DNA of 64,000 nt, from positions 307,979 to 371,978 of the forward strand of contig JBAZWG010000001.1 in NCBI GenBank assembly GCA_041660505.1, given 5' to 3'. The stretch comes from Minisyncoccota bacterium (GTDB lineage Bacteria > Patescibacteriota > Minisyncoccia > Phycocordibacterales > JACRKE01). Positions 34,777 to 60,897 of this stretch are shown in pieces (the first letter of the stretch is position 1; every line of letters starts with the position of its first letter). A program made the position numbers and the translations under genes. Under the pieces are notes generated by a model. The model did not search any database, was not told where the DNA came from, and was given only the letters and a program-made list of their open reading frames with translations.

Positions 34777-35658
34777 TTATTTCTTTTGCGCGATAGTATT
34801 ACCGTCGGAGACGAAGGTTATTGTACCCTGCTCATCCGTGCGTAAGTACGGGACGCCGAATTTCGCGAGCTTATCCAACGTTTCTTTATTCGGATGACCG
34901 TATTTATTGTCTTTACCGACAGAAATAATAGCGAATGAGGGTTTAACATATCCAAGCAGTGCTTCGCCGGTTGCGGTCTTAGAACCGTGATGACCCAATT
35001 TTAAAATATCGGCCTTAAGATTATCGCCGTCTAGCGATGCGAGATAATTTTCGACCGCTTGCGGTTCGTCGGCGGTCATAAGCACGCGAGTTTTGCCGTA
35101 AATCAATTCTGACACAATGGATTTATCATTAGTGTCACCGCCTTCTATGTATCTGTCGGGGAATAATATTCGCAACGTTGCTCCCCCGCCGAGGTCAACT
35201 ACTTGCCCGCGTTTGGCGATAACGACCGGTATCTCCTCTGTCTTGGCAATTCGTTCAACGAGTTGTTCTTGTTTATTAAGAGAATTGCCGGGCGACACCA
35301 TCAAGGCGCCGACATCATCGCGCGACAGCACGCTTGGCATACCGCCGGAATGGTCTAAGTCGGGGTGCGTCTCCATCACGAAGTCGATACGGCGATCATA
35401 GAATGGCAATTCATTGCCAAGCCTGCGCAAGACGATACTACCCGGGCCGGCATCGATGAGCGCATGATTCCCCACCGGTGACTCAATATATATAGAGTCG
35501 CCTTGGCCGACGTCTAGGAACGAGATAGTCAGTTTGCCTTGTCTTAACTCGTGGGATAATACATAAGCAAAGAAAAATACCGATACGCAAAGCCCGAGAA
35601 GAAAAGCTAGTTTAGCGTAGTGCTTTTTTGTGAAGAATTTCAGGTAATTTCCTTTCAT
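34777..35658 (-). CDS. comEC: ComEC/Rec2 C-terminal metallo-beta-lactamase domain (3' part of a split comEC)
   Basis: It has ...ISFLDVGQGDSIYIE...HPDLDHSGG...LKLGHHGSKT. It overlaps the upstream ORF by 47 nt in another frame. Confidence 0.75.
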   Translation of the reverse strand: MKGNYLKFFTKKHYAKLAFLLGLCVSVFFFAYVLSHELRQGKLTISFLDVGQGDSIYIESPVGNHALIDAGPGSIVLRRLGNELPFYDRRIDFVMETHPDLDHSGGMPSVLSRDDVGALMVSPGNSLNKQEQLVERIAKTEEIPVVIAKRGQVVDLGGGATLRILFPDRYIEGGDTNDKSIVSELIYGKTRVLMTADEPQAVENYLASLDGDNLKADILKLGHHGSKTATGEALLGYVKPSFAIISVGKDNKYGHPNKETLDKLAKFGVPYLRTDEQGTITFVSDGNTIAQKK

Positions 35659-37072
35659 ACAATATCAAGCATAGCATGGCCAGATACCAGATAAGCATTA
35701 ATGCCGTAGGCAATGAAGCGATTTGCAAATACGCGAACGGCAGATGAGCGGCGAGCGACACAACTCGTAAAACGTACAAAAGCAAAATGTGAGTCGGCAC
35801 GAGCGCAATGAATGCGACCGGATATGCAATGAAGCCGAGCACGATCATTATTGCGCCCAAGAGCATTAATGTCGGGACGACAGGCAGGATAAGAATATTG
35901 GCGAGAAGCGAGATGAGAGACACTATCCCCGTCTTATATATAATGAGTGGCATTATCATAGCCTCGGCCGCAATTGTGCCCGTAAGAATTTCTTTGACTC
36001 CGTAGAGCGCTGGTGCGCGTACGAGCAAACGACCAACAACCGGCGAGAGCCAGATAATGCCGGCGGCAGCGAGGAAAGAGAGTTGGAATGAGAAATCATA
36101 AAGAGGCGTAAGCGGATTCCAAAGAGACATTAGCAGTGCCGTGACCACAAGTGCCGTGCCGGCATCATATGTCCTGCCTTCTTTTTGCGCGAGCAAAAGT
36201 ATCACAGACATCACTGCCGCACGCACAGCCGAGGCAGAAAGCCCGGTCATAATGACGAACAAAACAATCATTACCCCGCTTAGGCCGAGGCCGATAGCCG
36301 TGGGTATACCGAAATATAAAATGACTGCTCCGATAGCATTCGCAATTATCGTAATGTTGTAACCCGATATGGCGACCACATGCGAGACGCCTGTCTGATT
36401 GAATTCGGCAAGTACCTCTTTGCCTATCGTCGTACGCGCACCGATCAAGATGCCGGCGACGAGCGACGACTCCGGCTCCGGCAGAAGTTCTGATATTTTA
36501 TTTAGGAATGTATGCTTGATTCCGTAAAGAAAAGAAAATGCAGAATTGCCTGCACCGCTCTTTATTTTCGATACGCTCGCATATTTAAACTCATACTGAA
36601 TACCGCGGAGTTTTAAGTATTCCTTCCAATAATCCGTCACGTTGGTCGCCTCAACTGCAGTTAAATTACCTTTTATGGAGATCAGATCACCGTAAGTAAA
36701 TTCCTGCGGGCCGTTTAATGTCACCACGGCCTCTTTATTTTTAAACATAGAGTCGTCAGTAAACTTAAGCGTTAGCCGCATACCGGTGTCTTGCTCTACC
36801 GGTTCGTCATTAACTACTGCCTGTATATTCACACTTTGCGCCGGTAGAAGTGCGGGTTGATTCACCTGCCAGAATTCATAACGAAAGATACCGAGACTTG
36901 TGGCGATTAGAAATACTGCGGTAATAAGCACTGCTCGTTCGCGCGATACGAACGGTAATATGAGCGCAAGCAGAAGCAAGAAAATCCCCACAGACCAGCC
37001 GAGCGCGAGAAAATAGGCAACAAAAATACCTGCGACGAATCCGACGCAGGCAGTGTAAACGTAAACACGCAT
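35612..37072 (-). CDS. comEC: ComEC/Rec2 N-terminal membrane channel domain (5' part of a split comEC)
   Basis: 486 aa and polytopic (DUF4131 plus a competence-like domain). An A6 tract at 35624-35629 lies 10 nt before its stop. Confidence 0.75.
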   Translation of the reverse strand: MRVYVYTACVGFVAGIFVAYFLALGWSVGIFLLLLALILPFVSRERAVLITAVFLIATSLGIFRYEFWQVNQPALLPAQSVNIQAVVNDEPVEQDTGMRLTLKFTDDSMFKNKEAVVTLNGPQEFTYGDLISIKGNLTAVEATNVTDYWKEYLKLRGIQYEFKYASVSKIKSGAGNSAFSFLYGIKHTFLNKISELLPEPESSLVAGILIGARTTIGKEVLAEFNQTGVSHVVAISGYNITIIANAIGAVILYFGIPTAIGLGLSGVMIVLFVIMTGLSASAVRAAVMSVILLLAQKEGRTYDAGTALVVTALLMSLWNPLTPLYDFSFQLSFLAAAGIIWLSPVVGRLLVRAPALYGVKEILTGTIAAEAMIMPLIIYKTGIVSLISLLANILILPVVPTLMLLGAIMIVLGFIAYPVAFIALVPTHILLLYVLRVVSLAAHLPFAYLQIASLPTALMLIWYLAMLCLILYERKLPEILHKKALR

Positions 37073-45867: not shown

Positions 45868-47085
45868 CTAGCTTATCGAGTTACCAATAGAATAGATGGG
45901 TTGAATGATAGAAATGGCGAAAAATCCGACGGCACCTCCGATAAGGAGCATCATGAGAGGCTCGATGATCGTCGACATATCTTTGGTCGCTGAGTCTACC
46001 TCCTCTTCATAAAAAACTGCGGTCTTCATCAGCATTCCGGCCAAGTCTCCTGTCTCCTCTCCCACTTCTATCATCTCACCCACAAGTATCGGGTAGAGCT
46101 TCTCGTTGGCTTGGAAGACGGCAGAAAGCGGCTTGCCTTTTTGAACAGCGCTGACAGCTTCATCCAAAACTTGCTTATATAAGTCGTTCTGCATTACGCC
46201 CTTGGTTGTCTCCAAGGCTTGCACCATATCCACACCGGAGGAGATAAGCGACGAGAGCGTGCGTGCGGTCTGTGCGGCGTTGGATTGTTTTATTATATTA
46301 CCAATAACCGGCGCATGCAGGGATATAAAGGTAACTGCACGCTTACCAAACACCGTCTTAAAGAACCAAGTAAGCAGTGCGACAGTGGCGATAAGCACGA
46401 ATAGCGCGATAAAATAATGATTGACCAGAAAAGAGCTCGTCCCGATAATGAGCTGGGTCTGCCACGGCAGGGCCACATGCATCGAGGTGAACGTCTTGGT
46501 CAATGTCGGCACGACGAATATCATCATCAGGACACTGATAATAATCATTATACCGATAATGACTGCGGGGTATATCATCGCCCCCTTGACCTTGCGCTGG
46601 ATGGTGTAAGTCTTCGTCATCTGTTCGGCGAGCATCTTAAGAGAGCTTGGGAGATTACCCGACTGCTCCCCCGCTTTAACCATCGCCGAGAAAACCGGCG
46701 GGAATATCTTGCTCTCCTTCGCCAACGCATCACTCAAGCTCCCGCCGGCGTCTATCTCGGCAGTAATCTCTTTGGCCACTTTCTTTAATTTTTGATTGCT
46801 TGTCTGACGATCCAGAATTTTAAGCGCGCGCGAAAGCGATAAGCCGGCCGTGAGCATCGAGCTTAAGTTGTTGGCGAAGGTGATCTTGTGCTTAAGAGGC
46901 ACCGAGACAACCATCTCGTTCAAGCCTTTGAAATAGTCGGCAAAAGCCTTGGTCTCGGCAGTCGCCGAGACGATAGAAAGTCCCTCCTTACGCAACTCGT
47001 GCGCCAGCTCGAACTTATCCCGCGCCTCGCGGACGCCAGTCGCACTCGCGCCACTAGCATTTTTCGCAGTGTACTTGAACTTCAT
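45868..47085 (-). CDS. pilC: Type IV pilus assembly platform protein PilC (GspF family)
   Basis: 405 aa. It has two T2SSF repeats and 3 TM helices. Confidence 0.85.
   Translation of the reverse strand: MKFKYTAKNASGASATGVREARDKFELAHELRKEGLSIVSATAETKAFADYFKGLNEMVVSVPLKHKITFANNLSSMLTAGLSLSRALKILDRQTSNQKLKKVAKEITAEIDAGGSLSDALAKESKIFPPVFSAMVKAGEQSGNLPSSLKMLAEQMTKTYTIQRKVKGAMIYPAVIIGIMIIISVLMMIFVVPTLTKTFTSMHVALPWQTQLIIGTSSFLVNHYFIALFVLIATVALLTWFFKTVFGKRAVTFISLHAPVIGNIIKQSNAAQTARTLSSLISSGVDMVQALETTKGVMQNDLYKQVLDEAVSAVQKGKPLSAVFQANEKLYPILVGEMIEVGEETGDLAGMLMKTAVFYEEEVDSATKDMSTIIEPLMMLLIGGAVGFFAISIIQPIYSIGNSIS
47045..47085. repeat. 41-bp direct repeat, copy 1 (the pilC 5' end)
   Basis: ctcgcgccactagcatttttcgcagtgtacttgaacttcat is repeated at 48317-48357 with 3 mismatches. 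Confidence 0.85.
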
Positions 47086-47106
47086 ATGTTTATAGTATAG
47101 CGCACC

Positions 47107-48228
47107 TTAGCCAGAGATAAAATCAGAAAAGTTTTCTTTATTCACAGTTATATAGCTACCTTGGTATGTCTCGATAAAGTTCTTTGGTGGACGGGCGTGC
47201 TTCTCTCCCCATTTGAATTCATAACCATGGATTGCTCCATCATACTCTTCAACATAATCAACTTCCCCACTACGGCGGTCTCTCCAAAAGAAATGATTTC
47301 GATACATCATGGAGTTTCCCAGGGACTTCATTCTTTCAACGATGCAAAAGTTCTCCCAAAGTGCCCCAATATCATCTCTTACCGGAAGCTGATTGAAACG
47401 ACTAATAATAGCGTTACGCATTCCAAGATCGTAGAAGTATATCTTGTTTTTTTTGCCGATTTCATTTCTTGGATTCCGTGATAGAGGATAGAGCGTGAAA
47501 ATAACAAAAGACTTCTCGAGCAAATCAAGATATCGAGAAATAGTGACTCTGCCTGTTTCAAGTTTCGTCGCTAATTCATTCAATGAAACTTCGTTCCCCA
47601 CTTGCAGCGCTAATAATTGCAATAGATTTGTGAGTAGCTTTGGTTTTTTTACTTGTTCAAATTCGAGTACATCTCGGAAAAGGTAGTTGGAGGATATATT
47701 TTGCAGAAATAGTTCTGCGTCATGCCACCCGCGCTGAGTGAGCTCGGGATAACTTCCATAACGCAACATTGAGTCCAAGACGTTTGCCATCTCCCATGGC
47801 TCCTTCATTGCCGCAATTTCCCCATACGAAAATGGATAGAGATGGAATTCAACCGATCTGCCTGTTAGCGGTTCGCTAATCTTATTTGCCAAATCAAATG
47901 ATGACGACCCTGTAGCCAGTAGTTGTAGTTCAGGAAATGTATCTTTGAGCAACTTCAGTGCTAAACCAATGTTTTCTACTCTTTGAGCTTCATCGAGAAC
48001 AAAAAATGTGCCCTCCCCAAGGTATGCCCGCAATTGCGCAGCATTCTGTGATTCAAGCGCTTGACGCGTTTCCAGATTCTCGCAATTAATATACTTCCCC
48101 TTGCGGTCTTTCAGAATCTCTTTTGCCAGCGTGGTTTTGCCAACCTGACGAGGGCCATAAAGTATCGCTATTTTACCCTGCTCTAGCCAATGTTCAATTT
48201 GGGCCTTAATAGTACGTTTTATGAACAT
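47107..48228 (-). CDS. AAA+ ATPase of the DUF4143/COG1373 type
   Basis: 373 aa. It has Walker A (ILYGPRQVGKTTLA) and Walker B (FFVLDEAQ). It is flanked by a duplicated pilC start segment. Confidence 0.7.
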   Translation of the reverse strand: MFIKRTIKAQIEHWLEQGKIAILYGPRQVGKTTLAKEILKDRKGKYINCENLETRQALESQNAAQLRAYLGEGTFFVLDEAQRVENIGLALKLLKDTFPELQLLATGSSSFDLANKISEPLTGRSVEFHLYPFSYGEIAAMKEPWEMANVLDSMLRYGSYPELTQRGWHDAELFLQNISSNYLFRDVLEFEQVKKPKLLTNLLQLLALQVGNEVSLNELATKLETGRVTISRYLDLLEKSFVIFTLYPLSRNPRNEIGKKNKIYFYDLGMRNAIISRFNQLPVRDDIGALWENFCIVERMKSLGNSMMYRNHFFWRDRRSGEVDYVEEYDGAIHGYEFKWGEKHARPPKNFIETYQGSYITVNKENFSDFISG

Positions 48229-48316
48229 AATGTATGTATATATTACAATATAATCAGTTAATATGTAACTTACATGTACATTATATACACACAGAGATGA
48301 ATGTCAAGTGTGTGCT

Positions 48317-48357
48317 TTCGCGCCACTAGCATTTTTCGCAGTGTAATGAAACTTCAT
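48317..48357. repeat. 41-bp direct repeat, copy 2 (a duplicated pilC start fragment encoding MKFHYTAKNASGAKAH*)
   Basis: ttcgcgccactagcatttttcgcagtgtaatgaaacttcat. Confidence 0.85.
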
Positions 48358-48361
48358 TATA

Positions 48362-51300
48362 CTAATCTTTCATACAGGTATAAAGAGTACCCGCAGAACC
48401 TGAACCACCACTTCCGAATGGAAACCCGACGCGCGTGTAGCCAGCAGGACAACCACTATTATAAATATTTACGACAGTCTTGCATGCCCGCGAACCTCCA
48501 GACAACGGAGCTCCAGTACTACTTATCAATGCCGAGCCACACCAAGATCCAACTGGGGCAGCATTACTGTCGACATAATCCTTGGTTGTGACTGTGGAGC
48601 CGGTGTCACCAGAAACCGTGCTTCGAGATGAAATCTTCCCCGCGGTGCCAATGTCAGTATTAGCAACAATACCGCCCAAAACAGTCACGCTACCGTTAAG
48701 ATAAGATGCTCCGCTTACTCTCATTATTCCGTTAACTTCAAGCTTGTAAGACGGTGTTGTGTTCCCGATACCGACATTCCCCTGATACGTCGTAATCGTT
48801 TCTGTGTTATTAGAATAGAGATGCAATTTACTGCCAGCTCCTGAATTATAACCGATGTACATGTCTTTATCGATAGCGCTGTTCGTATTTTGCAGTACGC
48901 GCATGTTGGCATATTGATCGGCCGAGGAAAGATCGATTCCTTGCGCCGCACCAGTACCGCTTATAACAAGCTTAGCTGTAGTTGGTGAGTTTGTACCAAT
49001 GCCTACATTCCCCGTACTTGTCACGAGAGCTGGTCCTTGGTCGGAGGAGAAATACCCTCCGTAACCACCTACCCCAGTCGCTTTGGCGTAAATTCCATAT
49101 GTAGCTCCATTACTGATAACACCGTAGGAACCGGTATTTAGAACTCGAATTCCAACGGTGCCACTGCTGGATACTTCTAGCTTGGCATTAGAAAGTGTTT
49201 GTGTGCCAATACCGACATTGCCACCAAAATATGATTGACCATTGCCGTAGAAATCGTACCCGCCGCTACCCCCACCTTGCCCCATAACACCGTTGCCCGT
49301 ACCGATACCTACTCCAAATACCCCGCTTACATTACTCATCGCATACACACCGTAGCTGTTACCACCCCTTACATCAAGCTTCGCAACTGGTCCGGGTGTC
49401 CCAATTCCAATATTTGTACCATCGTCATAGATGTTAGAATTAGCAATAGCGCTGGCAGAGCTGAATTTGGAAATGTATCCAGCAGAACCGCTTCCTGTTA
49501 CAGTTCCTCCTCCACCGCCACCTGCCGGCGTCTGCCATGTGGCAAGACCCGCCGCATCGGAAGTCAAAACTTTGCCCGCGCCCGGGGTGCCACCAGTAAT
49601 CTTGACTTGTCCTGCAACCTCAAGCTTCGCACCAGGTGTAATTGTGCCTATACCGACATTTCCGGTCGAGCCTTGCATTGTCGCAAAACTTTTACCTGCA
49701 CCAGAAGCGTTAGCCGAACGGAAAATGATGTTGCCGGTTGCGCTCGGTGCGTTCACATAAGTGTTTGTCCCATCTGTAAGCATCGAATAGTCTACACCGC
49801 TTCTCCACCATGCAGAGTAGGAGCTCGGATATGATGGATGCGTACCCATAAAAGTGTTGCCGGCTGCACTAACATTACCCGTAGCCGTAATGTTACTACT
49901 TGAATTGATTGCACCGGAGACATCGAGTTTTGCGCCCGGTGAAGCGGTGCCGATACCGACATTTCCTCCCGTATCTGCTATCACCGTAGTGCCGCGCAGA
50001 TAATTAATACCGTTGCCGAGATAATTGAAAGATGTTAAACCTGCCGTGGAATCTTTACCAGCCGGTAGTCTGACCTCGCCATAAGCAACTTCAAACTTTG
50101 CGTTTGGTGTCTGTGTGCCTATACCAACACCGCTTCCGTTGTCAAATATTATAGAATTGGTGAGTGCGCTTGTGCCCCATTTCGACAAGAAGTTGGTCGT
50201 GAGAGATCCGACTTTCGGATCAGTTTCTGACACGACACTGGCCCATGATGTCCTACAATCAGCATTTATACATAAACCGGTGCCGTTTATCGAACCGCCA
50301 ACATTAAGTTTATGGGTTGAGAAGGGTGCGGATACTGCCGCATTGCCAGTGTTCGTATCTAACCTAAATCCATAATTCCCGCTTGTGTCGGTCAACCCTA
50401 CTTGTGTAGTACCGAGCATACCTATATATGCTTGATCTGTAGTGTTGTTATTGAAGTAAAGCCCGGCCGCAGTACTGGCTCCTTTGCGTATACGCGACCA
50501 ACCATAAACATCAAGCTTCGCCGTAGAGGGAGTTGTGCCGATGCCAATATTGTCGAGATAATAAGCTCCGCCGCTAATTGATACGAATGGTGATGAACCA
50601 GCAGGCCCTGTTGGGCCTGTCGCACCAGTCGGCCCGGTTGACCCTGCAGGACCGGTGGCACCTTGGGGACCGGTCGGCCCGGATGCCCATGTACCGTCTC
50701 CGCGAAGGAAGGTCGCCGCCGTAGCACCTGCGGGAAGTTTGGCGACAGTTACGGCGTTTGGAGCGATCTTAGCAGTAGTCACGCCACTATCTGCGAGAGA
50801 GAGCGCTGTCGCCACAGAAGACCCGTTTCCTGTGATTGGTGAGTTAGCAAACACAGTCGCAACTGGTGCTGACCAGCTACCGTCATAACCGAGAAATGTT
50901 CCTGCATTCTTTACGCCGGCCAGCTTTGCGATAGTAACGCTACCGTCTGCTATTTGCGCAGTTCCCACTCCGCTGTTTGCGATTCCGATTGTACCGGTTG
51001 TTGTAATAGTTCCGCCCGATAATCCTGTGCCGGCGGTTATACTTGTCACTCCGCTTGAAGCCGGCGTCTGCCAAGTCGCAAGTCCTGCGCCGTTGGATGT
51101 AAGCACCTTATTATTCCCCGGAGTACCGCCGTCAATTTTAATCTGTCCGGCAATTTCAACAATTCCGCTATTGTTATTCGTGATATTATTCCCCGATGTC
51201 GTCCATTGAGTTGTTGGAGTTGCCCAAGTACTATCACCTCGGAGAAAAGTTGTGTTGTTTGCTGTGCCACTGCCTAGGCGGGCAGTGGCCATAGTACCTG

Positions 51301-52090
51301 TTGTAATCTTGCTGGCGGGCAGTGCACCGACATAATATGGGACGAGAACACCGTTTCCGACTATTGTAGTTCCGTCGACAGCGACACTTGCGTATGGCCA
51401 AGCAGTGCGACAGTCGGTACCGAGGCACATTCTCGATGTAGATGCCGTACCTTTAACTTCGAAGCTGCCGGTCGTTGTGGCATTACCGGCTAGCATTGTA
51501 TTGCCCGTAAACCACGAGTCACCGGAGACCAGGAACTTTTTACCGCCGTTATTACTGGTGCCGATACTCACATTGCCGGTAGTATTGTCAGAGTACAAGC
51601 CGGCAACAGGTCCGAGCATGACCACTGACCCATCTTCACTCACCGCACTGTCTGTCAGGCTTGTGCTTAGTGCGTCCCATTTGGCTAATTTATTCTGCGT
51701 CCCAGACCCGCCGACCGAGCCGGCGCCAACGGTTGAGAAACACGTACTGGCAGAACCCAAACAGATCTTGTTTGCGAGAATATCTCCGAAGACATCAAGC
51801 TTGAGATTCTGATTTATCTGTAGATCGGCAGCCGCATCGCGGGGTGCGTATACACTCGGCAGGCCTATAGTAGAAAGTCCGTTGTCAACCGACAAGCCGA
51901 CAGGAACACCGGAGTCTGTTCCCACGCGGAGTCCGCCCTGCTTGGTCTGATCTGACGCGCCGCTAGAAATAGGTGCGTCTTTATCCGCGCCCGGCGGAGT
52001 TTGAGTAGGGCCAGTCCAAGCGAGCGCGGACGGAATTAGAGAATTAAAGAATATAAGAATTATTGGGAAAATTTTTAGGGCTTTAGTCAT
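48362..52090 (-). CDS. Giant secreted fibre-like protein with collagen-like G-X-Y repeats and phage tail-fibre-like Gly-rich repeats
   Basis: 1242 aa. It has the signal MTKALKIFPIILIFFNSLIPSALA-WTGPTQTPPG, the collagen-like tract GPTGPQGATGPAGSTGPTGATGPTGPAGS, and many GNVGIGTxxPxAKL(E/D)V units. It ends in a Cys-containing globular tail. Confidence 0.75.
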   Translation of the reverse strand: MTKALKIFPIILIFFNSLIPSALAWTGPTQTPPGADKDAPISSGASDQTKQGGLRVGTDSGVPVGLSVDNGLSTIGLPSVYAPRDAAADLQINQNLKLDVFGDILANKICLGSASTCFSTVGAGSVGGSGTQNKLAKWDALSTSLTDSAVSEDGSVVMLGPVAGLYSDNTTGNVSIGTSNNGGKKFLVSGDSWFTGNTMLAGNATTTGSFEVKGTASTSRMCLGTDCRTAWPYASVAVDGTTIVGNGVLVPYYVGALPASKITTGTMATARLGSGTANNTTFLRGDSTWATPTTQWTTSGNNITNNNSGIVEIAGQIKIDGGTPGNNKVLTSNGAGLATWQTPASSGVTSITAGTGLSGGTITTTGTIGIANSGVGTAQIADGSVTIAKLAGVKNAGTFLGYDGSWSAPVATVFANSPITGNGSSVATALSLADSGVTTAKIAPNAVTVAKLPAGATAATFLRGDGTWASGPTGPQGATGPAGSTGPTGATGPTGPAGSSPFVSISGGAYYLDNIGIGTTPSTAKLDVYGWSRIRKGASTAAGLYFNNNTTDQAYIGMLGTTQVGLTDTSGNYGFRLDTNTGNAAVSAPFSTHKLNVGGSINGTGLCINADCRTSWASVVSETDPKVGSLTTNFLSKWGTSALTNSIIFDNGSGVGIGTQTPNAKFEVAYGEVRLPAGKDSTAGLTSFNYLGNGINYLRGTTVIADTGGNVGIGTASPGAKLDVSGAINSSSNITATGNVSAAGNTFMGTHPSYPSSYSAWWRSGVDYSMLTDGTNTYVNAPSATGNIIFRSANASGAGKSFATMQGSTGNVGIGTITPGAKLEVAGQVKITGGTPGAGKVLTSDAAGLATWQTPAGGGGGGTVTGSGSAGYISKFSSASAIANSNIYDDGTNIGIGTPGPVAKLDVRGGNSYGVYAMSNVSGVFGVGIGTGNGVMGQGGGSGGYDFYGNGQSYFGGNVGIGTQTLSNAKLEVSSSGTVGIRVLNTGSYGVISNGATYGIYAKATGVGGYGGYFSSDQGPALVTSTGNVGIGTNSPTTAKLVISGTGAAQGIDLSSADQYANMRVLQNTNSAIDKDMYIGYNSGAGSKLHLYSNNTETITTYQGNVGIGNTTPSYKLEVNGIMRVSGASYLNGSVTVLGGIVANTDIGTAGKISSRSTVSGDTGSTVTTKDYVDSNAAPVGSWCGSALISSTGAPLSGGSRACKTVVNIYNSGCPAGYTRVGFPFGSGGSGSAGTLYTCMKD

Positions 52091-52160: not shown

Positions 52161-53972
52161 TTACTCATTCGCTACACGCAAGACTTCCTCTATGCTCGTT
52201 ACGCCTTGTGCGGCTTTAAATATGCCATCTTCGAACATCGTAAGCATGCCGGCCGCACGGGCAGTGCGCTCCAAGTCGGCATCGCTCGCGTTCTTGATGA
52301 TTAATTCTTTAATCGCCGGTGTCATCTTCATAATCTCGTGAATACCGACACGACTCTTATAGCCATCCGGGCAGTCTGGCGATGGCTTGGGGCGACAGAA
52401 TTGGATTTTTGAAAAGTCATCGGTCGGGCCGACTATTTTCTCTTCTCGTAATTTTTGCAGTACGACATCGAGATTAATATGCTTCTTTAGTGACTCTATC
52501 TCGCCCGCCGTCAGCGTGTATTTCTCGTTGACGTGGTGCAAACGCCGCACCAAGCGCTGAGCGATGACCACGTTAAGGGTTGAGACGAGCAAGAACGGCT
52601 CCACCCCCATATCAATAAGCCTCGGCACCGCACCGGCAGCCGAGTTGGTGTGCAAAGTAGAAAGCACAAGATGGCCGGTCAACGCCGCATTGATGGCAAG
52701 AGATGCTGTCTCTTTGTCGCGAATCTCCCCCACCATTATAATATTCGGATCTTGGCGCATCAGGGCACGCAAACCGGCACCGAAGGTCAGGCCGATGTCG
52801 GGCTTAACCTGCGTCTGATTAACACGACCCATCTGATATTCGATCGGATCCTCTATTGTAGAAATATTTACGTCCGGTGTATTTAGCGTGTCTATCATCG
52901 TATAGAGCGTCGTCGTCTTGCCCGAGCCGGTCGGGCCGGTGGCCAGGATTATCCCCGTCGTTTGTCTCATTGCGTCGTGAATAGCTTCGAGCCCGGCGCC
53001 ATGGAAGCCGAGCACCTCGAGAGTGAATCCCTTTGCTGTATCGGGAAGCAAGCGCATCACCACCTTCTCGCCGAAGTATGTCGGCAAGAGCGAAACGCGG
53101 AATGACACCTTCTGCCCAGTCTCGGCATTGTCGATTTTAAATCGTCCGTCTTGAGGCAAGCGCTTTTCATCTAGGCGCAGGTGCGAAAGCACTTTGATGC
53201 GCGCCACGATGCCGGAAGCGGCGGCGATTGGCAATATCATTGCGTCATGCAAGATACCGTCGATGCGATAGCGGATTACGAGCTGGCCCTCGAAAGGTTC
53301 GATATGAATATCCGACGCCTGCTGGAGAATGGCGTGCTCGAGCAAAGCGTCCACAATGCGCACCACCGGCACATCTTCTGCCAGCTTAGCCAGATCAGGA
53401 TCAACTTCAGGGCCAGAGGTGAGTCCTCTGACATTTTCAGCGGCCGAGGTGAGTCCTCCGGTTTCAGCGGAGGTCTCTCCTCGGCCACCTATCTTCCTCG
53501 CCTCTGAACTTATAATACTGCCAAACTCGTCGCGCAAGCTTTTCTGATATTGGATAAGACCTCCTTTTATAGATTCTGTGTCTGTGAGCCGCGGTAAAAT
53601 GCGCACACCCGTGCGCTTGGCGATGAACTCGATAGCCTCCACGTCTTGCGGATCAAGCATCGCTACCTCGATATTGTTGTCTTTATCTCTCGCGTAAGCG
53701 AGCACATTGTGTTTGCGCGCAATCGGTTCCGGGATTATTGCAAGCAGTTTCGGGTCTATCTTCTGACCCTTTAAAGATATGAATGGAATGCCGAAGAGGT
53801 ACGCCTGCACACGGCGGAATTCGTCTTCGGTAATCTTACCTTCAGAAACTAAAACGTCGCCGACCGTTCTATCCTTCTCCTTTGCAAGTTTATCTGCCGC
53901 GTCGAAGTCGGCACCAGAGATCAAGCCGGCATCGAGCACGAATTGCTTGAGCTGTTTGGTGTCGAGTTGCAT
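52161..53972 (-). CDS. pilB: Type IV pilus assembly ATPase PilB (GspE family), with an in-frame repeat-derived insertion in the linker
   Basis: It has an N-terminal GSPII_E_N domain and Walker A GPTGSGKTTTL. The start is placed at MQLDTKQL (53972), because the track start 53993 lies in a family-1 repeat. Nucleotides 53413-53486 encode RGETSAETGGLTSAAENVRGLTSG. Confidence 0.85.
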   Translation of the reverse strand: MQLDTKQLKQFVLDAGLISGADFDAADKLAKEKDRTVGDVLVSEGKITEDEFRRVQAYLFGIPFISLKGQKIDPKLLAIIPEPIARKHNVLAYARDKDNNIEVAMLDPQDVEAIEFIAKRTGVRILPRLTDTESIKGGLIQYQKSLRDEFGSIISSEARKIGGRGETSAETGGLTSAAENVRGLTSGPEVDPDLAKLAEDVPVVRIVDALLEHAILQQASDIHIEPFEGQLVIRYRIDGILHDAMILPIAAASGIVARIKVLSHLRLDEKRLPQDGRFKIDNAETGQKVSFRVSLLPTYFGEKVVMRLLPDTAKGFTLEVLGFHGAGLEAIHDAMRQTTGIILATGPTGSGKTTTLYTMIDTLNTPDVNISTIEDPIEYQMGRVNQTQVKPDIGLTFGAGLRALMRQDPNIIMVGEIRDKETASLAINAALTGHLVLSTLHTNSAAGAVPRLIDMGVEPFLLVSTLNVVIAQRLVRRLHHVNEKYTLTAGEIESLKKHINLDVVLQKLREEKIVGPTDDFSKIQFCRPKPSPDCPDGYKSRVGIHEIMKMTPAIKELIIKNASDADLERTARAAGMLTMFEDGIFKAAQGVTSIEEVLRVANE

Positions 53973-53983
53973 GAGATCGACAC

Positions 53984-54024
53984 CGAGGTTCAACCTTTTT
54001 GATGCCTAAGGTTGAACCTCGGTG
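53984..54024. repeat. Family-1 paired palindrome, extended variant (ccgaggttcaacc...ggttgaacctcgg)
   Basis: accgaggttcaacctttttgatgcctaaggttgaacctcggtgg. Confidence 0.8.
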
Positions 54025-60027: not shown

Positions 60028-60897
60028 ATGAAAGCGCCGGATGAAACCTTACAAAAATTAAGAGAATATTTTGAAAAGCGTGATGACGTTGTTTTAGCTT
60101 ACCTCTTCGGTTCGCAGGCAAAGGGGACAGCGACACCTCATCGGTCGGACTATGACATCGCCGTTTATTTCGCGACCCCGTCCGGGACATTCGAATATGA
60201 AGCTGAAACTGGTGAATACCAGACCGAGAGTGCGATCTGGAGCGACTTGGAATCAATTACACATGAAGATATTGATCTTGTGGTTCTTAATCGGGCGCCT
60301 GCCTCTGTGGTCTTTTCCGCTATAAACGGGACCGAGGTTCTTGCAGAAAAAGATCGCGACCTTTTTATGAAGTTACTTCTCAAGAGCAGTGCCGATGCTG
60401 AAGACTACGCCGAGATGGTGCGCGATTACGCCGAGATAGCCGCAAGGTCCAGATCGCTAAGCCCGCAAGACATTCTCCGTTTAGAAAAAATCATGACATT
60501 CATGGGCAACGAAATGATCTTGCTCGAACAATATGGCGCAATCAGCCAGATCGAATTTCAACAGGATCCGCGGGCTAGGCGAGTGCTTGAACGCTCCGTC
60601 GAAATGCTCGTCAACGCAGGGCTTGATATTGCCAAAATATTGCTCGCTTCCGGCCGAAGAAACATTCCGGACAAGTATGCCGAAGTAATGAAGAATCTTG
60701 GATATCTGGATAATTTTGACAATGACACCGCCTTGTGGCTGTCACGTTCCGCAACGCTCCGCAACATTGTCGCGCATGAATATCTCGATCTTGAATATAC
60801 AAAGATAACCACCTTCCTGACGGGGAAAGAAAAGTATTTTACTTACTTAATGCAATACGCGAAAGAGGCGGTCCGAAAACAGAGAGAAGAAAAGTAG
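60028..60897 (+). CDS. Fused nucleotidyltransferase (MNT)-HEPN protein
   Basis: The N-terminus has LAYLFGSQAKGTATPHRSDYDIAV (NTase). The C-terminus has LRNIVAHEYLDLEY (the HEPN R-x4-HxY motif). Confidence 0.75.
   Translation: MKAPDETLQKLREYFEKRDDVVLAYLFGSQAKGTATPHRSDYDIAVYFATPSGTFEYEAETGEYQTESAIWSDLESITHEDIDLVVLNRAPASVVFSAINGTEVLAEKDRDLFMKLLLKSSADAEDYAEMVRDYAEIAARSRSLSPQDILRLEKIMTFMGNEMILLEQYGAISQIEFQQDPRARRVLERSVEMLVNAGLDIAKILLASGRRNIPDKYAEVMKNLGYLDNFDNDTALWLSRSATLRNIVAHEYLDLEYTKITTFLTGKEKYFTYLMQYAKEAVRKQREEK

Follow-up and report, generated by a model that had tools for sequence, protein, structure and literature searches.

A DUF4143 ATPase gene bracketed by a direct repeat of the pilC start in a pilus operon of Candidatus Paceibacterota

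A 64,000-nt stretch of a Minisyncoccota bacterium genome (GenBank assembly GCA_041660505.1, contig JBAZWG010000001.1, positions 307,979 to 371,978; hereafter the window) was analysed. It contains a gene for an ATPase with a DUF4143 domain, which stands inside a pilus operon between two copies of the start of pilC. Comparison with related loci makes it fairly probable that pilC in this member of Candidatus Paceibacterota received, at codon 14, a single-gene unit of 1,232 bp, and that the target was duplicated at insertion. Four comparative observations are taken as established: the repeat, the insertion relative to relatives with an empty locus, the discreteness of the unit, and the enrichment of flanking repeats across the gene family. 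The novelty would lie in the gene by which, or on behalf of which, such an insertion with its long target duplication was made, since it encodes no recognised recombinase. All genes discussed are on the minus strand unless marked otherwise.

The first 40 nt of pilC (47046-47085) recurred at 48318-48357. The two copies matched at 37 of 40 positions, shared an exact core of 28 nt and were spaced 1272 nt apart, the distance given by an earlier reading of the letters alone (the sequence-only reading). That reading had described a 41-nt duplication with three mismatches. The duplication and its coordinates were reproduced, but position 41 is itself mismatched (C at 47045, T at 48317), and the repeat is therefore 40 nt with three mismatches, or 41 nt with four. 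Comparison of the copies identified the downstream one (47046-47085) as the live pilC start (MKFKYTAKNASGA...); the start of the gene reads ATGAAGTTCAAGTACACTGCGAAAAATGCTAGTGGCGCGA. The upstream copy (48318-48357) is a relic of that start and opens a dead-end open reading frame (ORF) of 17 codons (48304-48357), which terminates inside the -35 hexamer of the insert. Translated in full, this ORF reads MKFHYTAKNASGAKAHT before its stop codon; the dead-end peptide had been recognised previously, but with its final T omitted. Three changes separate the copies (live TTC AAG, relic TTT CAT). They are confined to 4 nt and comprise one synonymous change (TTT/TTC) and a replacement at codon 4 (CAT/AAG, H/K), a PilC residue that is naturally variable across relatives (K/H/R).

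An assembly artefact or a chance repeat scarcely deserves credence as the source of this pattern, even though the sequence comes from a metagenome-assembled genome. A separate Logan assembly of run SRR18595301 (L001, 9,334 bp) was 100% identical over 9.3 kb and spans both copies. Assembly k-mers in usual use are longer than the 28-nt exact core. An artefact is unlikely because the second assembly is identical and because the core falls below these k-mers. The copies also differ at three positions and have unique flanks, and both junctions make biological sense, with pilC intact and the relic at the ancestral position. As for a repeat scattered through the genome without relation to this gene, the core occurred exactly twice in the window even at up to 3 mismatches (0 expected; 100 shuffles), and blastn-short found no third copy of the repeat there.

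Relatives with an empty locus were compared next to the relic. In L002 to L004 (PilC 81% identical) pilC begins 3 nt past the stop codon of the preceding large gene, and in L007 (PilC 70% identical) it begins 1 nt past it. In the window it is the relic that holds this ancestral pilC position, 4 nt past the preceding stop codon. The end of that gene (...CMKD and stop) is common to the window and L007, where the junctions read TAG TATA ATG and TAA T ATG, respectively. The order in L007, orf158-pilB-fibre gene-pilC-pseudopilin-pseudopilin-orf490-TIM-PGK, is that of the window minus the ATPase, and the ATPase unit is missing from the syntenic loci L002 to L004 as well. Because relatives have pilC directly after the preceding gene, and because L007 is syntenic but for the ATPase, sequence comparison supports an insertion of the ATPase unit into the pilus operon. 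The sequence-only reading had put forward an insertion that duplicated its target inside this operon and had suggested that relatives be inspected for an empty site. Both ideas fared well, with spacings of 1-4 nt and no ATPase in these relatives. Metagenome contigs scanned for a junction of fibre-gene end, pilC start and pilC continuation gave 0 matches. In L005 and L006 (PilC 75% identical) a 261-nt non-coding spacer, unrelated to the insert, precedes pilC. This spacer was considered as a decayed ATPase unit and rejected, since no significant similarity was found.

The inserted unit (47086-48317; 1,232 bp) is bounded by the repeat copies and consists of a 5' region with a promoter-like sequence, the putative ATPase-nuclease gene and a 21-nt 3' tail. 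Its GC fraction is 0.37-0.44, against 0.486 for the window. A consensus scan located a sigma-70-type promoter-like sequence, TTGACA-16 nt-TATAAT, with 12 of 12 consensus positions (48280-48307). Counted from the left end, the predicted promoter begins 10 nt into the insert, and it lies approximately 50 nt upstream of the ATPase ATG. The tail GGTGCGCTATACTATAAACAT (47086-47106) runs from the ATPase stop codon to the pilC ATG, and no terminator was found in it. A stretch of 19 nt over the ATPase stop codon and the tail matches the sequence upstream of pilC in L005 and L006 at 15 of 19 positions, a score reached by 12 of 2000 shuffles; the likeness is no more than a hint. As the sequence-only reading had noted, the ATPase gene stands alone between the copies. 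It is the sole ORF of at least 100 aa in the orientation of the operon (47107-48228). The window holds no ATPase paralogue, and no inverted repeat was found at the ends of the insert. The domains found in the unit were AAA+, winged helix-turn-helix and DUF4143, and none was a transposase domain. No recombinase, transposase or integrase was identified in the ORFs scanned approximately 15 kb each side, several large ones of which have no Pfam match. No tRNA was found between 40000 and 56000, an interval that takes in both junctions. Rfam gave nothing significant at the region, and no known RNA lies at the junctions.

The gene is intact and encodes a protein of 373 aa, in which Pfam searches recognised a P-loop ATPase (AAA_14), a winged helix and a DUF4143 domain of the putative PD-(D/E)XK type. 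AAA_14 (PF13173) matched residues 18-138 (8.5e-30, 103.8 bits; gathering cut-off 27) and DUF4143 (PF13635) matched residues 185-341 (2.4e-36, 125.3 bits; cut-off 28.1). The N-terminal ATPase is thus followed by a C-terminal DUF4143 domain with a winged-helix region between them, the organisation of COG1373, to which the protein belongs. The PADLOC profile PDLC04789 for PDC-S01 aligned over its full length as a single-gene match (E=1.8e-138; residues 1-371 of 373 against profile positions 1-373 of 375). This match gives substance to an earlier remark that such ATPases are found in mobile or defence contexts. Walker A (GPRQVGKTT) and Walker B (FVLDEAQ) motifs are present in the ATPase, and E298, D324, E337 and K339 were invariant across 30 homologues (E/D/ExK motif).

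An AlphaFold2 model of the whole protein had a predicted local distance difference test score (pLDDT) of 88.6. Its fold matches were RuvB, Orc1/Cdc6, the Pyrococcus ATPase PABY2304, RFC and MuB. Modelled alone, the C-terminal domain formed an alpha-beta-beta-beta-alpha-beta (H-E-E-E-H-E) fold with a pLDDT of 87.5. Its matches were mostly PD-(D/E)XK nucleases (Can2/Cdn1, the R2 endonuclease domain, RecU, Hjc, McrC and Cas4), all weak at E of at least 0.03, and none reached the fold-match threshold of E<=0.001. No solved structure of a family member was found by sequence; relatives in the PDB were related through the P-loop only. DUF4143 is listed within the PD-(D/E)XK superfamily (PMC3424549).

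Flanking repeats were then surveyed across the family. The survey took in 80 loci of species-representative genomes and a further 56 of metagenomic origin, encoding relatives with identities of 30-60%, nearly all full-length matches being 38-60% identical. Patescibacteria, Bacteroidota, Spirochaetota, Chloroflexota, Nitrospirota, Proteobacteria and other taxa were represented. For each full-length homologue, the 400 nt upstream were compared with the 400 nt downstream, and a repeat was scored at 40 bits or more. ORFs of 250-600 aa from the same loci served as controls. Direct repeats flanked 19 of 100 full-length homologues and 1 of 110 control ORFs (Fisher p=4e-6). With 600-nt flanks, 28 of 120 homologues were bracketed, a figure that includes a few redundant contigs and three tandem-paralogue cases. 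Tandem paralogues explain the flanking repeats at L008, L064 and probably L066, and these loci were left out of the clean cases. A search for the ATPase gene elsewhere, as the sequence-only reading had proposed, was therefore positive for flanking repeats across the family.

The repeats were 24-190 nt long, 79-100% identical and unrelated from locus to locus. Clean examples are those of L013 (40 nt, 100%), L063 (120 nt, 99%), L120 (188 nt, 94%), L032 (56 nt, 91%), L037 (74 nt, 89%) and L124 (116 nt, 84%). Exactly two copies per locus were recovered for 11 of 15 repeat pairs; for three more, the query copy alone passed the length filter. The downstream copy often begins a few nt from the ATPase stop codon, and in L013, L037, L043 and L081 the ORF ends within the repeat. 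The upstream copy ends 5-430 nt ahead of the ATPase ATG. As with pilC in the window, the repeats often contain a terminator-like hairpin or the terminal part of an adjacent core gene. That of L013 includes the 3' end of an ilvN-type acetolactate-synthase small-subunit gene, and that of L037 the 3' end of an HMG-CoA reductase gene. The inner ends of 12 bracketed units had no common motif and no inverted repeats, and the inverted-orientation control gave background scores.

Several surveyed loci were of interest in themselves. At L027 (57-2560; Candidatus Delongbacteria metagenome-assembled genome, SLFX01000183.1) a 30-nt repeat, TTAGCRCATCTCACACCCCATATTCTGCAT, occurs three times at spacings of 1231 and 1243 nt. 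The array has the form R-ATPase-R-Fic-R, the DUF4143 ATPase being followed by a Fic/DOC gene. At L120 (2303-2858 and 4147-4734) at least 556 nt are duplicated around the unit, in one block of 182 nt (91%) and another of 188 nt (94%). Inspection by eye suggests that the outer block holds the 3' end of a further DUF4143 gene, a paralogue lying upstream. Tandem DUF4143 genes are also present in L008, L064, L092 and L146. Past each stop codon of the L146 pair (1667-1697 and 2880-2910), at approximately 8 nt, stands a promoter-like TTGACA-17-TATAAT; the two stretches of 31 nt are 77% identical, which is weak (E=0.02). At L145 (2971-5253) the ribosomal-protein genes S3-L16-L29-S17-L14-L24-L5 end with rplE, after which comes a relative of the ATPase (65% identical) flanked by a 46-nt hairpin-like repeat of 80% identity.

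Related units were also found in unrelated places. Three pairs, L068/L077, L119/L120 and L125/L129, have units 80-87% identical at the nucleotide level in contexts that are otherwise unshared even when translated. The homology of related units, including the Rhizobium locus H82, covers the gene and approximately 40-155 nt upstream, with at most approximately 20 nt downstream. For L119/L120 it begins at the end of the L120 upstream repeat and ends exactly at the stop codon, and each of the two loci has its own, differing flanking repeat. L149 (2461-3717; Rhizobium etli CIAT 652 pC) is a distant family member, 31% identical. It has only the gene, 40 nt upstream and 17 nt downstream in common with H82 (Rhizobium sp. 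32-5/1). A Neorhizobium plasmid among the L149 matches H82 and H97 holds only the last 155 nt of the gene. Because long, variable, locus-specific bracketing repeats recur across phyla, the sequences suggest that the ATPase gene behaves as a discrete, compact mobile unit.

Occupied and empty sites were sought at three further loci. The cleanest other case, L013 with its perfect 40-nt repeat, yielded no empty site, its flanking gene having no relative above 48% identity. The Rhizobium plasmid pair gave no clean insertion or deletion, and the locus lies at the edge of a larger variable region. At the Bacteroides conjugative transposon locus, homology ended after rteC. A typical phage gene was considered as the identity of the ATPase and rejected, as relatives were rare in viral contigs (7 among 2.9 million).

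The following course of events is proposed. A unit in which an intact DUF4143 (PDC-S01) family gene is preceded by a consensus promoter of the unit's own and followed by a 21-nt tail would have entered pilC at codon 14. The target strands would have been broken approximately 40 nt apart (24 to more than 500 nt elsewhere), the unit joined and the gaps filled. A template switch during repair could have given the same product in place of staggered breaks. The logic is that of a target-site duplication, as in IS1634/IS1549. The downstream copy would then run on into a complete pilC while the upstream copy stayed behind as the 17-codon relic. The insertion into a tightly packed operon would have been harmless because the pilC start was duplicated and pilC was kept whole. 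With no terminator between the ATPase gene and pilC, pilC is now probably transcribed from the promoter of the unit, by read-through, or both. In the weakest part of this account, the ATPase-nuclease of the unit itself may make the target breaks and host repair may join them.

A number of points weigh against this interpretation. An empty site at the nucleotide level was not found, the closest empty relatives being only 70-81% identical in PilC. The unit and its surroundings have no identified transposase or integrase, no inverted terminal repeats and no conserved ends. PD-(D/E)XK nucleases cut DNA and do not join it. Since no recombinase was found and a nuclease of this type only cuts, self-mobilisation would lack a joining activity. 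Approximately 80% of the homologues have no detectable flanking repeat, for which decay, short duplications or a different route could account. The control genes in the survey were mostly core genes and not recently acquired ones. The repeats are not exclusive to the ATPase, as that of L027 also brackets the neighbouring Fic gene. Finally, the two copies in the window look more like two functional alleles than like a decaying relic, because their differences are clustered, one being synonymous and the other falling at a variable residue.

Such alleles are what a homology-assisted import would leave, and this explanation is possible, if on the unlikely side. The unit would have been transformed from a related Paceibacterota donor that already carried the ATPase upstream of pilC. 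If circular, it could have integrated through one crossover within the 28-40 nt of pilC start common to both molecules (Campbell type); if linear, it could have joined through a homologous anchor in pilC and, on the left, illegitimately at pilC +40 (homology-facilitated illegitimate recombination). The copies would then be the donor and recipient alleles and not the product of a filled-in staggered cut. The synonymous change and the K/H/R variation at codon 4 agree with this, and by a hand calculation approximately 1% of random placements would cluster three changes within 4 of 40 nt. The resemblance of the 19 nt upstream of live pilC to L005 and L006 points the same way, but it is short and promoter-like. 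DNA uptake is plausible with ComEC and pilus genes in the window, every flanking repeat found was at least 24 nt, enough for homologous pairing, and the L027 array would be expected if circles carrying R integrate at R. However, such a process moves a unit only between homologous sites. The first arrival at a new site requires a non-homologous event, and related units occupy unrelated sites with a repeat of their own at each. No donor-like relative was found in which the ATPase adjoins pilC; identity to the closest ATPase is 68%, and the contexts that were examined differ. The pilC identity profiles had no clear mosaic, which was not informative. Staggered breaks or a template switch are accordingly ranked first, and homology-assisted integration second.

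Two further processes were weighed. It is improbable that the ATPase gene is passive cargo of a trans-acting cassette system, inserted at the repeat in integron-like fashion by a recombinase or repair pathway unlinked to it. Such a system would be in keeping with the L027 array, where one 30-nt repeat follows both the ATPase and the Fic gene, and with a unit that lacks a joining enzyme. The repeats themselves speak otherwise, being unrelated host sequences (the pilC start, the ilvN 3' end, terminators) and so no common recombination site, and the scan of neighbouring ORFs described above identified no recombinase. More improbable still is a local tandem duplication of the pilC region in which foreign DNA was captured at the junction and one copy was later deleted to 40 nt. 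The sequence-only reading had offered this process as an alternative, and the L120 unit, with at least 556 nt duplicated around it as two blocks, is a point in its favour. It would need three events in the window, with a deletion ending exactly at the edge of the insert, and the sharp repeat edges recurring at many loci favour a single-step process.

The unit was compared with known mobile elements. Of the features of a classical insertion sequence, a direct target duplication and the same element at different sites were found for the window locus and the family, whereas a transposase and inverted or conserved ends were not. In duplication length the unit is like IS1634 and IS1549 (IS1634 family), which make direct repeats of 8-514 bp, very variable in length, for which there is no mechanistic model (PMC2266710). 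These are likewise single-ORF elements of 1-2 kb with long, variable duplications, those of the ATPase family spanning from 24 nt to approximately 190 nt, with L120 reaching at least 556 nt. They differ in having a DDE transposase and terminal inverted repeats, whereas the window unit encodes only an AAA+ protein with a putative PD-(D/E)XK domain and no such ends were found. An integron cassette is not indicated, since the repeats are host sequence differing by locus and no integrase was identified approximately 15 kb each side; a general Rfam scan, not a dedicated attC model, gave nothing significant. Nor does the unit resemble a tRNA-targeting island, given the lack of a tRNA in the interval searched.

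The free-standing homing endonuclease genes of T-even phages (seg and mob) are single nuclease genes placed between host genes or at their ends. They spread horizontally, carry their own promoter and leave their neighbours functional. In homing, homologous repair of a cut allele transfers a copy of the gene without any flanking duplication, and the nucleases belong to the GIY-YIG, HNH and LAGLIDADG families. The window unit is similar in being a single putative nuclease gene that spares its neighbours, but differs in its duplication, its nuclease family and its AAA+ domain. After Campbell integration or homology-facilitated illegitimate recombination, the insert stands between direct copies of a short segment shared by both partners or is held by a single homologous anchor. 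The bracketed product is the same and the host has ComEC and type IV pilus genes, but these are generic host processes, which explain neither an enrichment specific to a gene family nor the unrelated sites. TnsA of Tn7 is a PD-(D/E)XK-type endonuclease, and TnsC and MuB are AAA+ ATPases acting on target DNA. Their role in Tn7 and Mu is confined to assisting a DDE transposase (TnsB, MuA), and both elements have defined ends and make duplications of 5 bp. The unit has the same types of domain, an AAA+ ATPase and a putative restriction-like nuclease, and MuB was among its fold matches; however, it has no DDE transposase, and the fold matches are generic AAA+ proteins (RuvB, Orc1/Cdc6, RFC, PABY2304).

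The protein also belongs with the candidate defence genes. PDC-S01 has been described as an ATPase with a PD-(D/E)XK domain and is a defence candidate without experimental validation (PMC12988326); the window protein has the same predicted architecture and matches the profile over its full length. By published accounts, PDC-S01 ranks 4th in abundance among the "defence systems" of prokaryotes, its copies numbering in the tens of thousands, and the PDC candidates collectively were nominated by "guilt by embedding" in other defence systems (PMC12988326, PMC13356809). The window gene, in contrast to candidates nominated in that way (PMC12988326), is embedded in a pilus operon. Nothing in the literature searched ties DUF4143, COG1373 or PDC-S01 to mobility or flanking duplications.

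If the ATPase gene is a compact mobile unit, the embedding and abundance of PDC-S01 would partly reflect mobility and not function, which would bear on how candidate defence genes are counted. It would also mean that there is an insertion route with no recognised recombinase that leaves operons intact, of relevance to mobile elements and to small genomes such as those of Patescibacteria. A bolder and distinctly doubtful proposal is that DUF4143/PDC-S01 genes are autonomous single-gene mobile elements of a new class. Their AAA+/PD-(D/E)XK protein would open the target with widely spaced breaks, without a DDE, HUH, serine or tyrosine recombinase, and the long, variable duplications would spare the neighbours. 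In that event the very high copy number and the embedding in operons would, at least partly, reflect selfish, non-disruptive spread. For the window genome, the duplication would explain how a foreign gene came to lie in a tightly packed pilus operon without loss of pilC, and how pilC came to be placed downstream of a predicted strong foreign promoter.

The pilC gene (45868-47085) encodes a full-length T2SSF platform protein of 405 aa (Pfam T2SSF, 1.5e-61), 81% identical without gaps to that of its closest relative, P0121. Upstream of the relic lies the gene that the sequence-only reading had called the fibre gene (48362-52090). Its product, a secreted repeat protein of 1,242 aa, is not a pilin, and neither Pfam nor NCBIfam gave a match to it. 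The N-terminus resembles a signal peptide, and the sequence includes a collagen-like run (GXY) together with numerous copies of the repeat GNVGIGT..P..AKL[ED]V. The gene is weakly homologous to those at the same position in L007 and L002, very divergent counterparts with 32-37% identity over short stretches. By domain search, pilB (52161-53993) encodes an assembly ATPase (T2SSE and MshEN), 81% identical to its L007 homologue. The neighbours identified approximately 15 kb each side were pilus genes, TIM, PGK, RecJ, ComEC, NusA and an MNT-HepT fusion.

Three minor observations concern these surroundings. Genes for a dCMP deaminase and a 23S_rRNA_IVP/bAvd-like protein lie between pilC and the large pseudopilin gene in L002 (2969-3757), L003 and L004. 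The pair is absent from the window, L005 and L007, and constitutes another small insertion in the pilus operon. ComEC is present in the window as two adjacent ORFs (34777-37072), one with Competence and DUF4131 domains and one with a Lactamase_B domain, approximately 9 kb from the pilus operon, which fits a role for the pilus in DNA uptake. On the plus strand, one ORF (60028-60897) fuses an MNT-type nucleotidyltransferase to a HepT-like RNase, bringing toxin and antitoxin domains together.

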